Source: an uncultured Candidatus Saccharibacteria bacterium | GTDB taxonomy: Bacteria > Patescibacteriota > Minisyncoccia > 2-02-FULL-40-12 > GWA2-44-9 | Reading direction: 5' to 3' | NCBI GenBank assembly: GCA_964553025.1 | Contig: CAZKJF010000007.1 | Location: forward strand, 1-62,663 | DNA length: 62,663 nt | Shown here: positions 1 to 41,757 of the stretch, in pieces | Position numbering within the stretch: position 1 is the first letter of the stretch | Layout of the letters: every line of letters begins with the position of its first letter | Position numbers and translations under genes: made by a program | Notes under the pieces: model-generated | Seen by the model: only the letters and a program-made list of their open reading frames with translations | Databases searched by the model: none | Told to the model about the DNA's origin: nothing

Positions 1-228
1 CTGATAGGACCTAGGTTCCTCTCTGGGCGTCTTGCGACTTTACTCTTGCGAGACTATCGGGAATTAGCCAATCTTTCGACTGGTTGTGCCCGACCCAAAG
101 GCAGATACCAAGGTGTTACTAACTCGTTCGCCACTATGCAGAGGATTGCTCCCCTGCACCGTTCGACTTGCATGCCTTATCCACGCCGCCAGCGTTCATC
201 CTGAGCCAGAATCAAACTCTCTTAATAG
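1..228 (-). rRNA. rrs: 16S rRNA gene, 5' end only (continues beyond window start)
   Basis: Reverse complement of 201-220 is AGAGTTTGATTCTGGCTCAG, the universal 16S 5' site. It is followed by GATGAACGCTGGCGGCGTGGATAAGGCATGCAAGTCGAACGG. The mature 5' end is estimated to +/-5 nt. Confidence 0.95.
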
Positions 229-3245: not shown

Positions 3246-5726
3246 TCACACGACGAAATTAATCAGCTTATCTGGCACAAATACGGTTTTTTTCACAGTT
3301 TGTCCGGCTAGATGGCGGACAATATTCTCATCAGCGCGGGCTAACGCATCAATTTCCGCCTCTGAACGGCCTGGAGTAACGGCCAATGCCCCACGAACCT
3401 TGCCGTTTATCTGGACAATGAACCGGACTTCCTGGCGGCCCAAGAGAGCTTGGTCATATTCCGGCCATGGTTGGTGATGGACCGACGGCTCGTTAGCCAA
3501 TACTTCGGCCCATAATTCTTCGGCGATATGCGGCGCAAACGGCGCCAGAAGTTTTACGATCACCTCATACTGCTCCTTGGCCAGTTTTTGCCCCGCCGAG
3601 GCGTCCTCCAGTTCATTCAGCAATTTCATGAGCCCGCTCACGCCCGTATTAAACCGGTGGAATTTAATATTCTCCCCCACCTCTTTGATTGCCCGGTGAA
3701 TCGCCACGGGAATATCCGCTGACCCGGTTTCCGAAAGCTTCGCGTCATTGTATCGCTCGAAAAAATTCCAGATACGATCCAAAAATCTCCGAATGCCCAG
3801 CACGCCGTTGAAATTCCACGCGTAGTTCTGATCATAGGGCCCGAGGAATGCGAAATACATGCGCACCGTATCAGCGCCGTATTTTGCAACTTCCTTGTCC
3901 GGGTCCACCACGTTGCCTTTTGATTTGGACATTTTCTGGCCGTCCGGGCCAAGAATCAGCCCGTGATTGCGCCGGCCGATGAACGGTTCGGGAAAATCAA
4001 CCAAATTCAAACTTCGAAGCGCTTTGGTAACAAAGCGCGAATACAAAAGGTGCATGGTGTTGTGTTCGGCGCCGCCGAAATACATCGGCACCGGCAGCCA
4101 TCTCGCCATAGTATCCTTCGCTGCAAACGTTTCCTCATTGGCAGGATCGGCGTAACGCATATAATACCATGACGAATCCACGAATGTGTCCATAGTATCC
4201 GTCTCGCGCTCGGCAGGCTTGCCGCACTGCGGGCATTTCACCTTCAGCCATTTCTCGGCTTTGGCCAGCGGCGAGCGGCCGTCGTCGGCAGGCAAGAAAT
4301 TATCCAGCGACGGCAGTTTGACCGGTAATTTGTCTTCTGGGACCGGCACATAGCCGCAATCGGCGCAATGGATCATCGGAATCGGCACGCCCCAATACCG
4401 CTGGCGCGACAGCACCCAATCGTGGAGCCGATAGTTTTTCTTCTCTTCGCCCAGGCCCTTCTCTTTTAAAACTTCTAATATTTTTCTTGTTGCAGCAAAT
4501 TGAATTAAGCCATTGAGATTTCCTGAATTTATAAGCTGACCTGAACCAAGATAGGGTTTTTCTCCTCTTAAAAATTTATTTTTCTCATTTTGAATAGCCA
4601 CTTCATCATCTGGCCGAGCAATAATATTTAGCTCCTGTGGCTCTATTACCACTCGGACCGGCAAGTCGTATTTCTTTGCGAATTCAAAATCACGCTCGTC
4701 ATGCGCGGGTACGGCCATAATTTGGCCGGTACCATAGTGGCCCAGCACATAGTCGGCGACCCACACGGGAATTTCTTCTCCGGTCATAGGGTTGATCGCC
4801 TTCACCCCGGTATCGACGCCCGTCTTTTCTTTGTTCTCCTGGCGTTCAAGTTCCGTTTTCTTGAGACTGGCAGCCACGTAGTCCCTCACCTCCGCCGAGG
4901 CATCGCCTTTCGAATCTATCCATTTTTGGGCCATCTCCGGCGAAATAACGAGAAAGGTAACGCCGAAAATAGTATCGAGGCGGGTCGTAAAGACTTTGAT
5001 ATGCGCTTTTTCCATGCCCTTGATCGGAAACGTGATCACAGCGCCTTCGCTGCGGCCAATCCAATTCTCTTGGGCTTTCTTGGTCGCATCCGGCCAATCC
5101 AGGTCTTTCATGTCATCCACGAGCCGGTCGGCAAACGACGTGATCTTGAACATCCATTGCGACAGCTCGCGCTGCTGAACGGCCGTCCCGCACCGCTCGC
5201 ACTTTCCGTCCACGACTTGCTCGTTGGCCAGGACCGTCTTGTCCTGGGAGCACCAGTTTACCGCCGTCTTGGCGCGGTAGGCCAGGCCGGCCTTATGGAG
5301 TTGGAGAAAGATCCATTGCGTCCAGCGATAGTACTCGGGTTCAATCGTTGAAACAGCGCGCGACCAATCGAACCGCGCGCCCATCGACTGCAGCTGCTTC
5401 GTCATCGTCTTGATGTTTTTCTTGGTCCAGTCGCGCGGATGAATGTTGCGCTTAATGGCCGCGTTCTCGGCGGGCAGACCAAATGCGTCAAAGCCGATCG
5501 GATACATGACATTGTATCCGATCATCGAAAGATAGCGGCCATAGATGTCGGGCACGGCAAACGCGTACCAATGGCCGGTATGCAAATCGCCCGAAGGATA
5601 CGGAAACTCGACCAGAAGCATGAAATTCCGTTTTCCATCCGAGAAATCGGCGGCCTGATGCAGTTTATTGGCATCCCAATATTTCTGCCATTTCTTTTCG
5701 ATCTTTGCGGGGTTGTATATGGCCAT
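3246..5726 (-). CDS. leuS: leucyl-tRNA synthetase
   Basis: 826 aa. The HIGH-type motif is PYPSGDLHTGH and the KMSKS motif is present (QKMSKSKGN). Confidence 0.97.
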   Translation of the reverse strand: MAIYNPAKIEKKWQKYWDANKLHQAADFSDGKRNFMLLVEFPYPSGDLHTGHWYAFAVPDIYGRYLSMIGYNVMYPIGFDAFGLPAENAAIKRNIHPRDWTKKNIKTMTKQLQSMGARFDWSRAVSTIEPEYYRWTQWIFLQLHKAGLAYRAKTAVNWCSQDKTVLANEQVVDGKCERCGTAVQQRELSQWMFKITSFADRLVDDMKDLDWPDATKKAQENWIGRSEGAVITFPIKGMEKAHIKVFTTRLDTIFGVTFLVISPEMAQKWIDSKGDASAEVRDYVAASLKKTELERQENKEKTGVDTGVKAINPMTGEEIPVWVADYVLGHYGTGQIMAVPAHDERDFEFAKKYDLPVRVVIEPQELNIIARPDDEVAIQNEKNKFLRGEKPYLGSGQLINSGNLNGLIQFAATRKILEVLKEKGLGEEKKNYRLHDWVLSRQRYWGVPIPMIHCADCGYVPVPEDKLPVKLPSLDNFLPADDGRSPLAKAEKWLKVKCPQCGKPAERETDTMDTFVDSSWYYMRYADPANEETFAAKDTMARWLPVPMYFGGAEHNTMHLLYSRFVTKALRSLNLVDFPEPFIGRRNHGLILGPDGQKMSKSKGNVVDPDKEVAKYGADTVRMYFAFLGPYDQNYAWNFNGVLGIRRFLDRIWNFFERYNDAKLSETGSADIPVAIHRAIKEVGENIKFHRFNTGVSGLMKLLNELEDASAGQKLAKEQYEVIVKLLAPFAPHIAEELWAEVLANEPSVHHQPWPEYDQALLGRQEVRFIVQINGKVRGALAVTPGRSEAEIDALARADENIVRHLAGQTVKKTVFVPDKLINFVV

Positions 5727-5775
5727 AAAGTAACCTCACTATATCTGAAATCTTCTTTTTTATCAAAACCTAAAC

Positions 5776-8088: not shown

Positions 8089-8765
8089 TATTGCGGTGCG
8101 ATAACAACGACGAATTCCCCAAGCAGGTTGTTCTTGTTGGCCTGGATTTTGGCATCGATATCGGCGAGCGTGCCCCGATACACGGTTTCGAACTGCTTGG
8201 TCAGCTCCCGAGCGACGATCAGCTTCCGATGGCCGATCTTGGCGATCGCATCCAATTCTTTCAAAGCTTTCAGGACGCGGTGCTTGGATTCGTAGAATAC
8301 CACGGTTTCCTCGGTCGCGCCAACCCGTTCGAAGAACGTTTTACGGCCTTTTTTGTGGGGTGGAAAACCGAGAAATAAAAACCGGTCGCTCGGAAAACCA
8401 CTGATCGAAAGCGCGGCGATAGCCGCGTTCGGCCCCGGAATCGGCAAAATCGTCTCATGCGGCAACTCCTTTAAAATTTCCTGGATCAGATAGTTACCTG
8501 GATCATTCACGCCAGGCGTACCCGCATCCGAGACCAAGGCCACTTTTTTGCCCGATTGCAGGAGAGCGATAATTTTTTCAATGGTTTGCTCGCCGGAATG
8601 CTGGTGATACGAGATAATTTCTTTCTTAATATTGTAGTGATCAAGAAGCTGGCGCGTAACCCGGGTATCCTCGGCCAGGATCACATCTGCATTGGTGAGG
8701 ACGTGCACAGCCCGAAGCGTAATGTCCGAGAGATTGCCGATTGGCGTCGCAACGATGGAGAGCAT
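8088..8765 (-). CDS. rsmI: 16S rRNA (cytidine1402-2'-O)-methyltransferase
   Basis: 225 aa. VATPIGNLSDIT N-terminus and the tetrapyrrole-methylase fold typical of RsmI. Confidence 0.92.
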   Translation of the reverse strand: MLSIVATPIGNLSDITLRAVHVLTNADVILAEDTRVTRQLLDHYNIKKEIISYHQHSGEQTIEKIIALLQSGKKVALVSDAGTPGVNDPGNYLIQEILKELPHETILPIPGPNAAIAALSISGFPSDRFLFLGFPPHKKGRKTFFERVGATEETVVFYESKHRVLKALKELDAIAKIGHRKLIVARELTKQFETVYRGTLADIDAKIQANKNNLLGEFVVVIAPQ

Positions 8766-8768
8766 GGC

Positions 8769-9815
8769 TTAAGAGCTGCTGCGGCGGGATTCTTTCTGCC
8801 GCGCAACGTCATCAAGCATTTCGACGATAATCGTGGCCACCGGTACCGCCAAAATCATGCCCGGAATGCCCGCCAGCGTCTGGCCGACAAGCAATGCGAT
8901 GATAACCACGACGGGATTGAGATTGAGCGTTTTGCCGAGAATCAGCGGCACCAAGATATGATTTTCAAGCTGCTGAACGACGACGTACAGAATGATCACC
9001 CACAAACCTAGGGATGGCGATTGGAGAAAGGCCAAAAATGCTGCTGGAATGGCGCCGAGTACGGGACCTACCATGGGCACTAATTCCAGCACCATCATCA
9101 AGAGGCTCAAAATCAAGGCGAATTTAATATTTAGCAGCGACAGCCCGATATATACCATCAAGCCGACGATAAGACCCAGGAGCAGCTGGCCCTGGAACCA
9201 TTTGCCGACTTTCTTTTCGACGCGTTTCCAGAGGCCGGTGACATAGCTTTCATACTGCTCCGGCACTACGGATCCCAAAAAAGTTTCGATGCCCTTGCGC
9301 GTCACCGACAGATAGAACGAGATGACAAGAATCGCAAAAAACGAGAAGACGCCGCCGAACACGCTGACGATCAAACCGACAATAGACTGCGAGGCCTGCT
9401 GAAGATATGAAGAAAATCCTTCCAGGATATTCTCGATCTCGTTCAAAAAATCAAAATATTGGGGCGAAGAGTTTTGGACGTGCTCCAGCGAACCGACTAC
9501 TTTCTGAACGAACTCCGGCAGCGCCGTCGTGAGCCGGCTGATGTCATCGGAAATATAGGGCACGATCAGCGACGAAACGAACACCGCCAGACCCAGCACG
9601 GACAGGTACAGGAGCAGAACGCCCAGAATGCGCGGAAATCTTTTTTCATCAAGCCAATTTGCAAAGGGCGAAATTGCCGACGCGAGCACGAGCGCGAAAA
9701 GAAAGATAATAATTACTTCTTTCAGGGCATAGAGGAACACAAAGAGCAGCACAATGAGAATCGTGCGGAGAATGCTGCTGGTCGAGATGTCGAGCTGAAG
9801 ACGTTCGGATGCCAT
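8769..9815 (-). CDS. AI-2E family transporter (PerM-like permease)
   Basis: 348 aa polytopic membrane protein with the C-terminal GxPG..LAVP pattern of the family. Confidence 0.8.
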   Translation of the reverse strand: MASERLQLDISTSSILRTILIVLLFVFLYALKEVIIIFLFALVLASAISPFANWLDEKRFPRILGVLLLYLSVLGLAVFVSSLIVPYISDDISRLTTALPEFVQKVVGSLEHVQNSSPQYFDFLNEIENILEGFSSYLQQASQSIVGLIVSVFGGVFSFFAILVISFYLSVTRKGIETFLGSVVPEQYESYVTGLWKRVEKKVGKWFQGQLLLGLIVGLMVYIGLSLLNIKFALILSLLMMVLELVPMVGPVLGAIPAAFLAFLQSPSLGLWVIILYVVVQQLENHILVPLILGKTLNLNPVVVIIALLVGQTLAGIPGMILAVPVATIIVEMLDDVARQKESRRSSS

Positions 9816-26577: not shown

Positions 26578-27014
26578 GAGATAATGATTCTTCGTTTCTG
26601 TTCCGCCACATGATCGATGTGGATCGTGATTCGTTTCGCCGGCAGGATGTCCGCTACCCGCTCGGGCCATTCGATCAGAATAACAGCATCGGGCTGGCGC
26701 AGAATTTCTTCGATTCCTAAGGCTTTCAGATCGCCAGAATCTCGCAAGCGGTAGCAGTCAATGTGATAGAGATGAGTAAACGGCCCGGCGGCAATTTTAT
26801 ATTTCTTTAAAATAGTAAATGTAGGGCTTTTGAGTTTTTCGGAAATGCCGAGCGCGGCGGCGAAGGCCTGCACAAAGGTTGTTTTGCCCGCTCCTAGTTC
26901 CCCTTCCAAACCTACGACGACCGGTCCGTTTACCAATTCTTCTACGACCGCCTTGGCGTATGTTTGAGCAATCACGGCTGTCTCGCTGATCCCCTCCGAA
27001 ACGTATTCGCGCAT
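26574..27014 (-). CDS. tsaE: tRNA t6A37 biosynthesis ATPase TsaE
   Basis: 146 aa with P-loop GELGAGKTT and an HIDCYRL motif. Confidence 0.9.
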   Translation of the reverse strand: MREYVSEGISETAVIAQTYAKAVVEELVNGPVVVGLEGELGAGKTTFVQAFAAALGISEKLKSPTFTILKKYKIAAGPFTHLYHIDCYRLRDSGDLKALGIEEILRQPDAVILIEWPERVADILPAKRITIHIDHVAEQKRRIIIS

Positions 27015-27068
27015 GGTCCCATCATAGCCGTTTAATTGGCTTTTTTCAAGGATTTTTTGTAATTGAAA

Positions 27069-27109
27069 AGCCCGAGTTCGAAGTCGCCTGACGGCGACGA
27101 ACTCGGGCT
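27069..27109 (-). terminator. rho-independent terminator (nested hairpin)
   Basis: AGCCCGAGTTCG...CGAACTCGGGCT with an inner GTCGCC/GGCGAC stem. Followed on the minus strand by TTTTCAATT. Confidence 0.7.
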
Positions 27110-27152
27110 GTCGGTCCGCGCGACCGCGGACTGATGAAAGAACAGGAAAGAA

Positions 27153-27974
27153 CTACTTTGGGCCACATAGCTTTTGGGTCCGTTCCGATTCCCGACTCCA
27201 GCCATACTCGTTGTAGAGTCGACTGAAGCACTCATCGGCATCCTCTCCCAGCCGGCGGCCCTCGATTGGCGCTGGCGCCGCTGACAGAGGAGTCTGTGAC
27301 TGTGGCGCCGGATTATCGGGAACATAGCTGAAATTCCCGCCAACCCGGTCACCAACCTGCGGCGCCCGGAAACCCTTGGGAACGGTTTCACGGTACAACC
27401 GCTGGCCTTCGCTTAGGAACCGCGGCGACGCCTCCACAAATCCAGAGAGGAGCACAAGGATCGCCAGTCCTGCAACCACCCAGCGGCCCCAGCGCGGCGC
27501 TTTGGACCAGATACCGGTCCAGAACACCACAATGAGGAGGCCGATCCCAATGAGAATTCGGCTTTCCGCGGAGAGCAGCCAGAACTGGCGCCAGAGCTCC
27601 AGATAGAGTGCCCCAATGATCACCAGCGCCGTAAGGATACGGAACCAGTAAACTTCAAGGAACCTCTGGAACCTTGACCAATGGTTGGTCATCGCCCAGC
27701 CGGCGGCCACCACGGCTCCAACCAGCAATGCTTCTTCGGTCCAGGCGCGAGCCAAGATGAAGATGATGACCACGCCAGTCAGTACCGCTGCCGCAAACCA
27801 AGCATGGCGGCCGCGGCCAGCACTCCAGGTACGGAGTACCAGGTGGTTGTGAGGCCAGGTCTTCACCATAGCAATGATGAAGATAATGACCGCCACCGCC
27901 AAGGTGAAGGTCCATTTGTATTCCATACGCATTCTCCAATCTCTGTAAGGAGAGCGCCCTATGCGCACTCCCAT
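27153..27974 (-). CDS. polytopic membrane protein (hypothetical, GC-rich)
   Basis: 273 aa with about 6 TM helices and a Pro-rich C-terminal tail. Contiguous with the upstream gene (stop and start are adjacent). Confidence 0.65.
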   Translation of the reverse strand: MGVRIGRSPYRDWRMRMEYKWTFTLAVAVIIFIIAMVKTWPHNHLVLRTWSAGRGRHAWFAAAVLTGVVIIFILARAWTEEALLVGAVVAAGWAMTNHWSRFQRFLEVYWFRILTALVIIGALYLELWRQFWLLSAESRILIGIGLLIVVFWTGIWSKAPRWGRWVVAGLAILVLLSGFVEASPRFLSEGQRLYRETVPKGFRAPQVGDRVGGNFSYVPDNPAPQSQTPLSAAPAPIEGRRLGEDADECFSRLYNEYGWSRESERTQKLCGPK

Positions 27975-28823
27975 CTACTGGGTGCAGGAATTCCGCAGAT
28001 GCACAATTCCTGCTTTGTCGCGCTCCACGCACAGATCAGTGTACTCCATCATCAGTACACCGTCGATCTTGGCATTGGAGCCAGTGTTCTGCTTGCGGAA
28101 CCGGTATTCTGTTTCCGCCCATGGCACACATGCCGTCCGACCGGAACCAATGGTCAGGTCGCTTCCGTCCATGGCGATCATGGCTTCCGTATCATTCCGG
28201 ACACGAACCGAACCCGGCGTGCAGACGGAAGACTGCGGCATGGAGTACGAAACTTCTGATCCGGCTTCAGCAGCAACAGATCCTACCGAAGCCAATGCCG
28301 CACGTTGTGCGGCGGCTTCTTCAGCGAGAAGCTGAAGCTGCCGAGTGGCGGCTGTTTGAGCCACCATCATGTCAACATCCGGACGCGAGATGTTCATCGC
28401 CGTTGGAACCATGCGTTCCGTATTCTGGCGACGATGGCCGGCAATAGAATCCGCAATGATGCCCGCAACGGCGCCGATCGCGGCTCCCTTCAAGGTTCCG
28501 GAGACCCGACCATTACTGGCCATCGCTCCGATGACGGCACCGGCACCGGCCCCAAGGGCCGTACCGCCGCCGATTCTGATCCGAAGGGGACTGCCGAGGC
28601 GACGGCCGCTCAAAAGGGCCATAGCCATGAATGTCCCATCCTGAAGATAGTATCCGCGATATCCGCCGTAGACGGCGGAATACATCGCAAATTCCGCGGG
28701 GGAGATCTGCGACCGCGCTGCCAGGATTCGAGCCTGGTTGATCGCGATCGAGACGTTATCCTGGGCAGCCGCCGGAACGGCGGCTGCCAGAAACAAACAG
28801 AGAACTGCGAGTACAGGTTTCAT
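27975..28823 (-). CDS. secreted glycine-zipper protein (hypothetical, GC-rich)
   Basis: 282 aa: signal peptide MKPVLAVLCLFLAAAVPAAAQ, a glycine-zipper segment GGGTALGAGAGAVIGAM...GAAIGAVAGII, and a Cys-containing C-domain. Confidence 0.7.
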   Translation of the reverse strand: MKPVLAVLCLFLAAAVPAAAQDNVSIAINQARILAARSQISPAEFAMYSAVYGGYRGYYLQDGTFMAMALLSGRRLGSPLRIRIGGGTALGAGAGAVIGAMASNGRVSGTLKGAAIGAVAGIIADSIAGHRRQNTERMVPTAMNISRPDVDMMVAQTAATRQLQLLAEEAAAQRAALASVGSVAAEAGSEVSYSMPQSSVCTPGSVRVRNDTEAMIAMDGSDLTIGSGRTACVPWAETEYRFRKQNTGSNAKIDGVLMMEYTDLCVERDKAGIVHLRNSCTQ

Positions 28824-28876
28824 GCATCACCTCGTGAAAGCTCGCGCTCGCGCGTCGAGCGGGAAAAATGTCCAAG

Positions 28877-29108
28877 GGTGTCACCGGTGACATGTCACCA
28901 GTGACACCATCCAATTGTGAACGTGCTGTCACCTTGCTATGGCTACATTATATCAAATTTATACTGTTTTGTAAAGTGGTATAATATAGCCTAAAAACAC
29001 CGTTTTCAGGGGTGACGGGGTAACACACTGTAGTGTCATGGTGTCACCTGTCACCTCTGGCACTGGTGACACCTATTTTGACACCAGTGTCACCTATTCA
29101 GTGTCACC
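28877..29108. repeat. array of GTSAC cores (GGTGACA/TGTCACC heptamers), left array
   Basis: 11 exact GTGAC/GTCAC sites starting at 28880, 28887, 28894, 28901, 28928, 29012, 29043, 29050, 29066, 29089 and 29103. Includes a 32-bp near-palindrome at 28877-28908 and an AT-rich core at 28940-29000. Confidence 0.9.
28947..28975 (-). promoter_or_regulatory. candidate promoter TTTACA-17-TGaTATAAT for the glycine-zipper operon
   Basis: On the minus strand the -10 is the complement of 28947-52 with an extended TG, and the -35 is the complement of 28970-75. The 32-bp palindrome lies in the predicted 5' UTR. A plus-strand TGgTATAAT (28977-28985) sits back to back with it. Confidence 0.5.
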
Positions 29109-29110
29109 CC

Positions 29111-29482
29111 TTACTCAATATTTTTATAGTGTCGAATCTTTGCTACTTTATGCTTAAGATCAAGGGTAACCGCGACTACATCCATTTGCCACAGAGTTTC
29201 TTCTCCTAGACGATATTCGATCAGAAAAGTCCGGGCGATTCGTTCCATCCGAACCTGCTTGGCATGATTAACGCGAAGCTCCGGTTCAAATCCTGCCATC
29301 TCTCGGCTATTGGTTTTTACTTCAACCAGAACAACAACCCCTTCTTTTGACGCAATAATATCTGCCTCGCCCCACGGTTTTCGGTAGTTTTGAGCCAATA
29401 TACGATATCCCTTTTGGCTTAAATAGCGAGCCGCGTATCTCTCTCCCACCGCCCCGATAAAGATATGTCTATTTTGCGTCAT
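29111..29482 (-). CDS. yraN: YraN-family (UPF0102) endonuclease-like protein
   Basis: 123 aa. GERYAARYLSQKGYRILAQNYR...GEADIIA...VLVEVK is typical of the family. Confidence 0.85.
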   Translation of the reverse strand: MTQNRHIFIGAVGERYAARYLSQKGYRILAQNYRKPWGEADIIASKEGVVVLVEVKTNSREMAGFEPELRVNHAKQVRMERIARTFLIEYRLGEETLWQMDVVAVTLDLKHKVAKIRHYKNIE

Positions 29483-29524
29483 TCCCCCTTACTCTACCAC
29501 CAGAAAATCTATCCACAAACCCGA

Positions 29525-29553
29525 TTGACCAAGGGCTAGTTTTGTGATACCCT
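29525..29553 (+). promoter_or_regulatory. candidate promoter TTGACC-17-TGaTACCCT
   Basis: Read directly from the sequence. The same TGATACCCT 9-mer recurs upstream of gatC (54820-54828). Confidence 0.4.
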
Positions 29554-29580
29554 TAGAGCACGTTCTCGTCCAGAGAACTT

Positions 29581-30720
29581 TTGTCTTTGTTAAGGCCAAA
29601 TCCCATTTTTACAGACCTCAAAAAATCGTTGCGTCGCTTGCGCATTTCCGGTTCTACCGGCTATGCTGGCTTTAAAAAAGCAGCCACTCATAAAGGAGTC
29701 CAGTTGTATGCCACTATCGGTCTTGCACTTATCCTGATCGTCTTAAAAAGCCAAACCGGCGACGAATCAGGATTTTTTAATTCGGTTGTCCATCATTACA
29801 TCGAAGAGACATCAGCTGCCATCAATGCTTCGGGCCCCGATGACCAGTTAGCTGATATTAGCGGGTTGGCAGTCCAGCAAGATACTTCCGGCCGCGGATC
29901 GGATATTAACCTCCTCTCTTCTTCAATCCAGGAGAATTCAATCGTAGCTTCCGATCCGAGCTCAACCGATTACCTGACAAGTTTTTTGCCCAACAAAATA
30001 ATCGAATATACCGTACAGCCAGGCGACGCTATTTCATTTATTGCATCCGACTTCGGCGTGAGCGTGAATTCAATTATTTGGGCCAATAATTTAAAGAGTG
30101 CTGATGCAATTAGTCCTGGTCAAGTACTTAAAATCCCTCCAATTTCCGGAGTTATTCATACGGTTGCAAAAGGCGATACGGTTTCCAGTATTGCCAAAAA
30201 ATACAATGCAGATGCGGACAAAATTGTCGCTTTTAATGACATCAATGATAATCAATTAACGATCGGTAATGATATTGTAGTTCCTGCAGGAACTCCGGCC
30301 GGTTCCTCTAAAGTTTCTTCTTCATCAATCGTTGTCTCTACCGCTCAAAATTTTTCTCACCTCCCTGATCTTGGCGATTATTTCCTTATTCCGACAACCG
30401 GCTATGATTGGGGGATTATCCATGATCGAAACGGTGTAGATATAGCCAACTCTTGCGGTACGCCGATTCACGCGGCAGCTGACGGATCAGTCGCAATTGC
30501 ACTCTCTAGCGGCTGGAATGGCGGTTTCGGTGAATACATCAAATTGATCCACGGAAATGGCACTGAAACATTGTACGCTCACTTAAGTAAACTTTTTGTC
30601 AGTGCAGGAGAAACTGTCACCAAAGGTGAGACTATTGCGCTCATGGGCACAACTGGCCATTCAACAGGATGTCATCTCCATTTCGAAGTTCATGGCGCCA
30701 AGAATCCGCTTGCAAAATAG
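29581..30720 (+). CDS. LysM-domain M23 family metallopeptidase
   Basis: Two LysM repeats (YTVQPGDAISFIASDFGV, HTVAKGDTVSSIAKKYN) and a C-terminal M23 domain (HxxxD-type GVDIA..., GHSTGCHLHFEV). An alternative TTG start at 29704 is preceded by AAAGGAG. Confidence 0.9.
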   Translation: MSLLRPNPIFTDLKKSLRRLRISGSTGYAGFKKAATHKGVQLYATIGLALILIVLKSQTGDESGFFNSVVHHYIEETSAAINASGPDDQLADISGLAVQQDTSGRGSDINLLSSSIQENSIVASDPSSTDYLTSFLPNKIIEYTVQPGDAISFIASDFGVSVNSIIWANNLKSADAISPGQVLKIPPISGVIHTVAKGDTVSSIAKKYNADADKIVAFNDINDNQLTIGNDIVVPAGTPAGSSKVSSSSIVVSTAQNFSHLPDLGDYFLIPTTGYDWGIIHDRNGVDIANSCGTPIHAAADGSVAIALSSGWNGGFGEYIKLIHGNGTETLYAHLSKLFVSAGETVTKGETIALMGTTGHSTGCHLHFEVHGAKNPLAK

Positions 30721-32268
30721 TTAAACAGCTCCGGAAGCCACTTTTTCGTTGATTTTTAAACTCATCGCTTCGGCAATATGCTTTTCTCCAACATACTGAG
30801 AAGCGTCAAGATCGGCTATTGTACGGCCGATCTTTTTGATTTTATGGTATGTGCGCAATGATACATTCTTGGCTGAAATAAATTGCCTCAAGAGCGATTC
30901 GGCAGATGGAGTAAGGATACAGAATAAGTCTATGTTTTTGTAGCTAATTTCAGCATTATTTAAAATATCAGTTCCCAAAAAGCGCTTCTCTTGAATGGCT
31001 CGAGCTGCCGCTACCAAGTGTCTTACTTTTTTAAACTCCTCAAGGGGCATAAGATCGTTTGTTTTTTCGAACAGAGAGGTTTCTCGAGGGACGAGAACTT
31101 GGATATCAATACGATCCAAGAGGGGGCCTGATATTTTCTTTCGATAGCGAGTGATGTTAATCGGGGAACAGACGCATTCTTCACTGGAATTTCCCAAATT
31201 ACCGCATGGGCATGGATTCATAGCCCCTATAAGCATAGATTTGGCCGGTAGACGCACGGAACCCGCTGCACGTGAGACTGTGATCATTCCTTCTTCCAGC
31301 GGCTCTCTAAGGCCCTCTAAAACGTTTCTGGAGAATTCGGGTAATTCGTCGAGGAAAAGTACGCCACGATGGGCTAAGCTAATTTCGCCGGGCCGAGGAC
31401 TGCTTCCGCCGCCGACAATAGCGGCGGCGGAAGCAGTATGGTGAGGATTTCGGAAGGGCCGCTGATGGGGAAATACGCCGTTTTTAAGTAATCCAAGCGC
31501 GCTATATATCCGAGCAACTTCGATTGCTTCAGAAAATAACAGGGGAGGCAGTAAATCCATTAAAGACTTAGCCAAAAGCGTTTTTCCTGTTCCCGGCGGC
31601 CCGCTCATCAAGAGATTGTGGCCGCCGGAGGCGGCCACAATCAACGCTCTTTTAGCTGCATATTGACCCTTAATCATGCGAAACGAATCGCCGCCGCCCT
31701 GCTCATCTTCCAAGGAAGGCAGGAGAGTTCGCTCAGCTGGGGTAATAAGCAACTTTCCGGAAAGGTGAGAAATAACAGCAGTAATACTAGATACGCCAAA
31801 TATGGAAACACCTTCAACGACAGCTGCTTCGGCTTGATTGGCTGCAGGGACGAAGATTTCTTTAAAGCCGGCGTTTCGAGCCATTAAAGCGGCTGAAAGA
31901 ACACCATTTACGGCTTTTACTGAACCGTCCAAGGATAATTCTCCCAAAAAGAGTTTGTCCGAAGTCTGGAAAGAGACCTGCCGAGTCTCCAGGAGATACC
32001 CTACAGCAATGGGAAGATCATATGACGGCCCCTCTTTTCGAATATCAGCCGGCGCGAGGTTGATAATAATCTTTTTGTGTTTTGCGCTCGGAGGAGCGAG
32101 GCGGTTGGCCCGGATTGCCGAAGCAATCCGCTCTTTTGACTCTTGAACTGCCTTATCGGGCAACCCCACGATGCTGAAAGCATGCAAACCCGGCGTAGAG
32201 TCAACCTCAACCTCGATTAATTGAGCATCAATCCCGGTTATGGCGGCCGAAAACAATCGTACAGACAT
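30721..32268 (-). CDS. comM: Mg-chelatase-like ATPase ComM/YifB
   Basis: 515 aa: Lon-protease-like N-domain, Walker A GPPGTGKT, and a C-terminal Mg-chelatase subunit ChlI-like region. Confidence 0.95.
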   Translation of the reverse strand: MSVRLFSAAITGIDAQLIEVEVDSTPGLHAFSIVGLPDKAVQESKERIASAIRANRLAPPSAKHKKIIINLAPADIRKEGPSYDLPIAVGYLLETRQVSFQTSDKLFLGELSLDGSVKAVNGVLSAALMARNAGFKEIFVPAANQAEAAVVEGVSIFGVSSITAVISHLSGKLLITPAERTLLPSLEDEQGGGDSFRMIKGQYAAKRALIVAASGGHNLLMSGPPGTGKTLLAKSLMDLLPPLLFSEAIEVARIYSALGLLKNGVFPHQRPFRNPHHTASAAAIVGGGSSPRPGEISLAHRGVLFLDELPEFSRNVLEGLREPLEEGMITVSRAAGSVRLPAKSMLIGAMNPCPCGNLGNSSEECVCSPINITRYRKKISGPLLDRIDIQVLVPRETSLFEKTNDLMPLEEFKKVRHLVAAARAIQEKRFLGTDILNNAEISYKNIDLFCILTPSAESLLRQFISAKNVSLRTYHKIKKIGRTIADLDASQYVGEKHIAEAMSLKINEKVASGAV

Positions 32269-32307: not shown

Positions 32308-32337
32308 AGTATATATCAGATTACAAAAAACTGTCAT
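32308..32337 (-). promoter_or_regulatory. candidate proximal comM promoter ATGACA-18-TATACT overlapped by a 7-bp inverted repeat
   Basis: The -10 is the complement of 32308-13 and the -35 is the complement of 32332-37. The inverted repeat TGACAGT (32304-10) / ACTGTCA (32330-36) spans both boxes. Confidence 0.45.
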
Positions 32338-32343
32338 TTTTCA

Positions 32344-32487
32344 GAAAAAAAAGCAGCGCAGGTAGCGCTCTTTCGGTCAAAAATGAAAAGGGTAGAGAAA
32401 AAGCGACATCTGCGCTGTCTATTGTATGGCTGCCGGCGATCCGCAGCTAATTTCGAAACCGCTAGACAGCAATCATTACGAGGTACT
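32344..32487 (-). ncRNA. candidate ~140-nt small RNA or attenuating leader upstream of comM
   Basis: Starts just downstream of the distal promoter (32494-32522). Contains an 8-9 bp helix GCTGTCTA/TAGACAGC enclosing further stems. Ends in hairpin AGCGC-N5-GCGCT plus U8, where the U-run is the complement of the A-run at 32344-32351. Confidence 0.35.
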
Positions 32488-32493
32488 GAATAA

Positions 32494-32522
32494 AGTATAG
32501 AGTGAGAGGTGACAGGTGTCAA
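32494..32522 (-). promoter_or_regulatory. near-consensus promoter TTGACA-17-TATACT
   Basis: The -35 is the complement of 32517-22 and overlaps one GGTGTCA repeat. The -10 is the complement of 32494-99. Confidence 0.55.
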
Positions 32523-32681
32523 TGTAATTTGTGGATAAGGTGTCATTGGTGTCATGTGTCACCAATGACACCTCTGTCACCATAATTTTTTGGCTTTAAT
32601 TCTTAACTATTTTAGGTGACATAGTGACAGGTGACACTGTCACTATGTCATGGTGACAACAGTGCCATGTCACCTTGTCAC
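32509..32681. repeat. array of GTSAC cores (GGTGACA/TGTCACC heptamers), right array
   Basis: 10 exact GTGAC/GTCAC sites starting at 32509, 32558, 32576, 32616, 32624, 32631, 32639, 32653, 32669 and 32677, plus at least 4 GTCAT/GTCAA variants. Perfect inverted repeats of 13 bp (32539-51/32560-72) and 14 bp (32617-30/32637-50). AT-rich core at 32583-32613. Confidence 0.9.
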
Positions 32682-32688
32682 CATCCTA

Positions 32689-32729
32689 TCCACACCACCG
32701 CCCCGGTATAACCGGGGCGGTGGTGTGGA
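32689..32729 (-). terminator. 18-bp perfect GC-rich hairpin downstream of 32754-34100
   Basis: TCCACACCACCGCCCCGG-tataa-CCGGGGCGGTGGTGTGGA. No clear U-tract on either strand. Confidence 0.55.
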
Positions 32730-41554: not shown

Positions 41555-41649
<95 letters not shown>

Positions 41650-41668
41650 GGAGAGAGCGGCCTCAATG

Positions 41669-41757
41669 CGGAGACGGGAGGATTCGAACCTCCGGTCCGG
41701 TTTTACCCGAACACCTCTTTAGCAAAGAGGTACATTAGACCACTCTGACACGTCTCC
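41669..41757 (-). tRNA. tRNA-Ser (GCU)
   Basis: Type II tRNA. Anticodon stem-loop CCTCT-TTGCTAA-AGAGG. No encoded CCA. Confidence 0.93.

Follow-up and report, generated by a model that had tools for sequence, protein, structure and literature searches.

Conserved arrays of the heptamer (T)GGTG[A/T]CA as a cis-element and candidate multi-site operators in a clade of Patescibacteria

Most Patescibacteria (Candidate Phyla Radiation) cannot be cultured, and for this reason, to our knowledge, the regulation of their genes is almost entirely unexplored. The locus studied here raises the question in a concrete form: why does the 287-bp gap (28824-29110) between the start of a glycine-zipper gene (28823) and the stop codon of yraN (29111) hold one short word so many times, and what might read it? 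The gap lies in the window, by which we mean the whole stretch of 62,663 nucleotides that was analyzed. The window is a complete contig from a MAG of an uncultivated, Yanofskybacteria-type member of the Patescibacteria, and it opens inside a 16S rRNA gene, of which only the 5′ end is present (1-227, minus strand) and which is usable for a finer taxonomic placement. The window also carries two adjacent tRNA-Ser genes (41559-41649 and 41668-41757, minus strand), to which ARAGORN assigned one ACT anticodon, unusual for bacteria, and one GCT anticodon. The literature offered nothing usable on the word as an iteron or operator, nor on regulatory motifs of Patescibacteria.

A first-pass annotation had given the size of the gap as 287 bp and reported 11 exact GTGAC/GTCAC pentamers in 28877-29108, and both the coordinates and our count agree with it. 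The pentamer, however, is not the real unit. The consensus of 152 sites from 15 arrays, in which both orientations are present, is the heptamer (T)GGTG[A/T]CA, with a central A in 119 sites and a central T in 33. Counted in this way, the region 28824-29110 contains 14 exact copies of GGTGWCA/TGWCACC and 7 copies with one mismatch. This density is far from that of a random sequence: when the window was simulated 300 times with a Markov-1 model, no 232-bp stretch contained more than 5 GTSAC or 3 heptamers, compared with the 11 and 14 observed. Outside this left array and the right array described below, the heptamer was at background in the window (6 observed against 3.7 expected), and the evenly high density that the first-pass annotation had set against its own interpretation is thus not seen there.

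The 152 sites also show how the word is arranged. Arrays hold 9-21 copies, and the spacing between neighbors peaks at 7-9 bp, although longer gaps also occur and contiguous 7-bp steps run at most 2-3 long. Pairs 7-9 bp apart are often direct or convergent and seldom divergent (3 of about 39), and about two thirds of the close neighbor pairs are direct repeats. Regular tandem repeats were considered as a description of the arrays and rejected, as TRF yielded only fragments of 2-3 copies. The packing at 7-9 bp, together with the frequent direct or convergent and the rare divergent pairs, points to small DNA readers that would cooperate side by side.

The right array (32508-32682; 12 exact and 5 one-mismatch heptamers) lies upstream of comM, just past the gene of a proline-rich membrane protein, and consists of two clusters (32508-32581 and 32615-32682) with an AT-rich spacer (32582-32614) between them. 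Its promoter-proximal end is intertwined with a sequence match to the promoter of a small RNA, TTGACA-17-TATACT (32494-32522, minus strand): the −35 element overlaps the heptamer at 32515-32521, and the heptamer at 32508-32514 fills the spacer between −35 and −10. A DnaA-box-like element, TTATCCACA (32530-32538, minus strand), lies between the proximal heptamers and the −35 element and is kept as TTATCCAC/TTATCAAC/TTGTCCAC in most of the relatives shown. The order of these parts is common to the right arrays. A distal cluster with 2-3 heptamers facing 2-3 inverted ones is followed by an AT-rich spacer of about 35-45 bp, which holds AAAGCCA or a close variant in many loci, and then by 2-3 proximal GGTGACA, the TTATCCACA/TTATCAAC element, TTGAC(A/G), the in-spacer TGTCACC, and TATAAT/TATACT. 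The arrangement TTGAC(A/G)-N1-4-TGTCACC-...-TATAAT/TATACT is kept in nearly all relatives. On the far side of the array, between it and the membrane-protein gene, there is a hairpin with a perfect 19-bp stem (32689-32729; TCCACACCACCGCCCCGGT/ACCGGGGCGGTGGTGTGGA), which is missing from L040, an 87% relative, and which may be a recent insertion or a lineage-specific terminator.

All 17 further related loci examined (L003/L040, L004, L005, L041-L047, L052, L194-L196, and, from metagenomes, the contigs L095 and L081) carry an orthologue of the right array in the corresponding syntenic place, so that the lack of conservation in relatives with the same gene order, which the first-pass annotation had held to be damaging, does not apply. 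The identity of ComM to that of the window is 57-87% where measured, and those relatives that carry a name are called Candidatus Yanofskybacteria or Paceibacterota. No GGTGWCA array was present in the three outgroup loci examined, two from Saccharibacteria and one from Eubacteriales (L048, L050, and L051). The gene order runs from PNPase through the membrane protein, the array, (zf-DksA/TraR), comM, the LysM peptidase, and yraN to variable small secreted or membrane proteins, tsaE, and polA; relatives largely keep this order from PNPase to polA, with local rearrangements in some. In L195, an inserted gene for an N6/N4 DNA methyltransferase (8211-9128) separates the membrane-protein gene from the array, and a heptamer lies in the 3′ end of this gene. 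When the window was compared with L040, heptamer positions were 96-98% identical and other intergenic positions 72-74%; flips of the central base between A and T preserve the motif, and sites are gained and lost while the word stays. Heptamers conserved far above their spacers, with sites turning over, argue for selection on the DNA word itself and not on a longer element or on base pairing.

The left array has a much narrower distribution and is confined to the window, to L002, a Logan contig identical to it, and to L003/L040, the relative at 87%. L041 and L042 have a few heptamers at the equivalent promoter downstream of yraN. In L045, a second array of 12 heptamers (5592-5748) follows just after comM, where the 3′ ends of this gene and of the LysM peptidase gene converge, and it has no recognisable promoter. 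Judged from these distributions, the left array is best regarded as a younger, lineage-specific copy and the right array as the ancestral, clade-wide one.

The ancestral array leads to a predicted transcript. Downstream of its promoter, a predicted structured RNA of about 150 nt (32333-32488, minus strand) has its own strong promoter and an intrinsic terminator, in the window a stem at 32355-32369 followed by U8. In the relatives aligned, the RNA lies between the array and the zf-DksA/comM genes (L005 5422-5578, L041 3359-3502, L042 3454-3594, L044 3412-3586, L047 3444-3582, and others), and the region is 130-200 nt long and ends in a strong intrinsic terminator. The central hairpin shows compensatory changes across 12 sequences, and the 5′ segment pairs with the region after the central hairpin in several members. 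The terminator loop holds the heptamer-like GUGUCACAC in several members. At the gathering score, Rfam 15 gave no match over the arrays or the adjacent RNA in the window and 11 relatives, and at E<10 the two arrays returned only miRNA-like hairpin noise. As comM has a separate promoter-like site of its own 3′ of the RNA terminator (32308-32337, minus strand; also in L040), the array would most directly govern the RNA and not comM. We suggest that this conserved, unannotated RNA next to comM is the core target of a small regulon.

The left array is likewise arranged around a promoter, and its two halves are mutually inverted around it. The promoter is a sequence match of the sigma-70 type, TTTACA-17-TG-TATAAT (28947-28975, minus strand), with a predicted start near 28940, and comparable promoters occur at the same position in L040, L003, L004, and L005. 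In L004 and L005, the glycine-zipper-type promoter is present without heptamers there. The presumed target is the minus-strand operon 27153-28823. Within it, 27975-28823 encodes a secreted protein with a glycine zipper and 27153-27974 a multi-pass membrane protein; yraN (29111-29482, minus strand) forms the other border of the gap. The region of this cassette (27000-29000) has a GC content of 57%, compared with 42-46% in the adjacent yraN-LysM region (29000-31000). The genes at the cassette position differ among relatives, from which the cassette looks variable, and it was possibly acquired.

Downstream of this promoter lie a single TGTCACC (28927-28933, minus strand; kept in L040 and L003), just 3′ of the −10 element at about +8 to +14, and a 32-bp near-palindrome (28877-28908) at about +33 to +64 of the predicted glycine-zipper transcript. 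The latter has 16-nt arms that are 94% complementary, is built of four to five overlapping heptamers (GGTGTCA/TGTCACC, GGTGACA, TGTCACC, and aGTGACA/TGACACC), and is perfect as a palindrome at this position in L040. The upstream block (29011-29108), with 8 exact heptamers and 5 that deviate at one position, most of them oriented as TGWCACC, covers about −71 to −168, reaches the yraN stop codon, and is kept with some site turnover in L040, L003, and L002. Between this block and the promoter, there is a short A/U-rich hairpin (28990-29010, minus strand), which is a possible, if weak, yraN terminator and is kept only in part in L040. The near-palindrome and the minus-strand promoter TTTACA-17-TGaTATAAT (28975-28947), with the palindrome inside the predicted transcript, had both been claimed in the first-pass annotation and were recovered here. 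Its description of back-to-back promoters stood only by half: the minus-strand promoter is conserved in L040, whereas the plus-strand match (28958-28985) is not. This match fits the consensus, yet it is doubtful that it is a real promoter.

The position of the palindrome suggests that the arrays might act as RNA, the inverted heptamers forming stacked hairpins in the 5′ UTR of the glycine-zipper mRNA and in the 3′ UTR of yraN and affecting stability, processing, or termination. On folding, the palindrome would form a 14-bp hairpin if transcribed, and the predicted 5′ UTR in which it lies has an MFE of −47.8 kcal/mol with z = −3.6; the upstream block, for its part, lies between the yraN stop codon and the weak hairpin. 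However, direct repeats, which make up about two thirds of the close pairs, cannot pair with each other, and the ancestral array lies upstream of its promoter. Moreover, each heptamer is kept whether or not it has a partner, no compensatory changes were seen between the window and L040, and there is no Rfam match. We therefore consider this reading very unlikely, and the RNA element with stacked hairpins, which the first-pass annotation had offered as well, is unsupported as the main explanation. The transcribed part would be limited to the 32-bp palindrome, which may have a secondary RNA-level effect on the glycine-zipper mRNA.

The arrays are real, non-random, and conserved, with their heptamers constrained and fixed relative to conserved promoter elements. 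We consider it probable, with considerable room for doubt, that both arrays are cooperative multi-site operators for one putative sequence-specific protein that reads (T)GGTG[A/T]CA. The same word is kept in related genomes, which makes docking sites for a putative DNA-binding regulator the most likely function of the arrays. The multi-site operator or nucleoprotein platform proposed at first pass is supported by the conservation of the arrays, by the constraint on heptamers above that on spacers, and by the heptamer within the conserved promoter spacer. We infer that a protein binds the arrays and represses transcription; of the possible kinds of protein, a ribbon-helix-helix or small winged-helix reader would be the most compatible with packing at 7-9 bp. 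With many copies at 7-9 bp in direct or convergent orientation, protein units could line up side by side and bind cooperatively, and DNA looping could join the two clusters that flank each promoter. The ancestral promoter is optimally spaced, with one heptamer on its −35 element and a further one in its spacer, so that bound protein would exclude RNA polymerase, which amounts to repression. At the left array, the sites at +8 to +64 and −71 to −168 could form a roadblock or a loop on the glycine-zipper promoter, and the array itself might mean that a second promoter has been drawn into the same regulon in this lineage. The extra heptamers at the L041 and L042 promoter and the second array of L045 fit such a small, evolving regulon.

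The binding protein is probably encoded elsewhere in the genome. Pfam scans of 30 neighboring or small ORFs from the window and relatives gave no ribbon-helix-helix and no fitting HTH domain, and the only hits of the regulator search were a protein with an HTH_23 domain, encoded 27 kb away, and, in a single relative, a gene of the TrmB family. No other array was present in the 62-kb window or in three 21-kb loci, and among the matches listed in a pattern scan of metagenomes, both Yanofskybacteria-type ones are the same orthologous locus. One locus per genome with nearby satellites is unusual for the regulon of a transcription factor and also fits a unique structural site. Furthermore, 14-21 sites are far beyond the need of a simple operator, which counts against the operator model, and the L045 array between convergent genes is unexplained by it. 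It is conceivable, but in our judgment unlikely, that a domesticated iteron- or centromere-binding protein of plasmid or phage origin builds a large nucleoprotein complex at a single clade-defining locus and gates the RNA next to comM, satellites such as the left array being captured by looping. If this were true, the complex would amount to a new system of Patescibacteria, regulatory or architectural, and not to an ordinary repressor-operator pair.

A quite different possibility is that the arrays are clusters of GTSAC targets for a restriction-modification system or methyltransferase, or remnants of a mobile or invertible element (MITE or inverton). GTSAC is about 1.3-1.9-fold under-represented outside the arrays, and the N6/N4 methyltransferase gene adjoins the array in one relative, L195. 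However, the conserved unit is an asymmetric 7-8-mer and not GTSAC. Inversion is suggested by the mutually inverted halves of the left array around the promoter and by a tyrosine recombinase gene 5 kb away, but only one orientation occurs in three independent assemblies (L002, L003, and L040; assemblies only), and the recombinase is a conserved XerC/D-like neighbor of rpsO in all relatives whose loci reach that far. As for a mobile element, the two arrays share nothing beyond the heptamers, and target-site duplications are lacking, as are further copies in the window. Taken together, we give these readings hardly any chance. MITE and transposon were rejected because only heptamers are shared and no other copies exist in the window, an inverton is disfavored by the same orientation in the independent assemblies, and GTSAC was rejected as a restriction target because its depletion is only mild and CTSAG is the strongly avoided word. 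CTGAG/CTCAG (CTSAG) is under-represented about 5-fold in the whole window (16 observed against about 81 expected), which suggests a restriction-modification system targeting CTSAG.

The cis-element formed by the arrays is real, is conserved in a clade of Patescibacteria, and had not been described before. The arrays provide a concrete word of 7-8 bases in 9-21 copies, in a fixed promoter register across a whole candidate family, and they point to a putative DNA-binding protein and to an unannotated structured RNA beside the gene of the competence helicase ComM. The left array suggests that, within a lineage, further promoters can come under the same control. The binding protein could be sought among candidates expressed from MAGs, with synthetic array DNA as bait.

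Several known systems can be compared with these arrays. A LexA motif of Patescibacteria was reportedly defined by Sanchez-Osuna et al. in 2017; however, none of the genes targeted here is of the SOS type, and with 14-21 sites per promoter the arrays do not resemble a LexA operator. Phage P4 is closer. Its type-1 iterons in ori and crr are bound by the alpha primase-helicase, a winged-helix-type initiator that reads a near-identical 8-mer, TGTTCACC, in paired arrays. TGTTCACC differs from the present word by one inserted base (TGT-T-CACC against TGTCACC), and the P4 iterons are 9-11 bp apart in both orientations and form two clusters a few kb apart, each split in two. In contrast to P4, there is no primase-helicase or initiator gene here, the neighbors are housekeeping genes (PNPase, comM, yraN, tsaE, and polA), and the arrays are locked onto promoter elements with no sign of an origin in skew, DnaA boxes, or adjacency to dnaA.

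The P4 comparison bears on the question of whether the arrays are replication-origin iterons, either of the chromosomal oriC or of the origin of an integrated element, like P4 ori/crr or the iterons in phage initiator genes. The iteron-like arrays, the AT-rich spacer, and the TTATCCACA box would all suit an origin, the right array containing one perfect and one 8/9 DnaA-like box, and P4 likewise has two TGTTCACC arrays, which are 4.7 kb apart. On the other hand, the GC skew does not change sign across the array, either in the window, with 30 kb to each side, or in L194-L196; the number of DnaA-box-like matches in the whole window stays at background (14 against 10 ± 3); and no dnaA or dnaN, initiator, primase, or other mobile-element gene lies nearby, where the housekeeping synteny is kept. 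An origin is therefore most improbable, and oriC in particular was rejected, as far as sequence tells, on the GC skew, the DnaA-box counts, and the lack of adjoining replication genes.

Viral sequences offer a second comparison with origins. The identical word GGTGWCA(CC) occurs in arrays of 8-12 copies in IMG/VR contigs, but those arrays are located within or next to genes for replication in GC-rich prophages and consist mostly of 9-mer palindromes. In viral and metagenome contigs, arrays of 8-19 GGTGWCA(CC) were observed inside lambda-O-like HTH_36 initiator genes or beside VapE/PriCT/Prim-Pol genes (L020 7574-8764, L007 1886-2542, L025 466-1323, and L013, L027, L030, L035, and L078/L083/L099), and they are probably phage replication origins. 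The presence of such arrays inside HTH_36 O-like initiator genes or beside VapE/PriCT primase-helicases would speak for an origin here as well, but the likeness is unspecific: the viral scan gave 34 array hits, about 20 of the 34 from one prophage family, and two permuted control heptamers gave 3 and 16. Since control heptamers also form viral arrays, shared ancestry is not implied and the phage arrays serve as an analogy only. Homology to phage iterons was rejected for these reasons, namely that permuted words match too and that one prophage family dominates.

Repeat operators read by ribbon-helix-helix proteins form a further group, to which ParG-parH and the metboxes of MetJ belong. The related omega protein (ParB-pSM) of pSM19035 binds as one ribbon-helix-helix dimer per WATCACW heptad, at sites of 7-10 heptads each that overlap promoters, and direct and convergent (inverted) heptad pairs give high-affinity binding (PMC9499535). 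The present arrays resemble these sites in several respects. They are composed of a non-palindromic 7-bp unit, in 9-21 copies against the 7-10 of omega and in mixed orientation; they overlap promoters, and several arrays occur within a few kb; direct and convergent pairs dominate the short spacing, which matches the high-affinity arrangements of omega; and the core TCAC is common to WATCACW and TGTCACC. The differences are equally clear. The omega system calls for four or more strictly contiguous heptads with no gaps (PMC9499535), whereas the heptads here are 7-9 bp or more apart. Furthermore, the word is TGTCACC and not WATCACW, the setting is a Patescibacteria chromosome, and no omega, ribbon-helix-helix, or ParA gene was found near the arrays among the ORFs tested in the window and neighboring loci.

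The omega arrays of pSM19035 are centromeres and operators both (PMC9499535), and the present arrays might likewise be centromere-like or architectural nucleoprotein sites, as type Ib/II parS/parC/parH, that serve in segregation or in the bridging of arrays, with effects on promoters being secondary. Essentially one conserved locus per genome with satellite arrays 1.8-3.4 kb away, and 9-21 short repeats of mixed orientation in two clusters around an AT-rich spacer, are what such a site could look like. However, no ParA-type or centromere-binding gene adjoins any locus, and the heptads lack the strict contiguity that the omega system needs for ParA activation (PMC9499535), while the fixed register with the −35 and −10 elements points to transcription; we regard a centromere-like role as improbable. 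For the arrays as multi-site operators, an omega-type mechanism would, by analogy, be the closest parallel: small protein units, each reading one short asymmetric word, side by side over a promoter.
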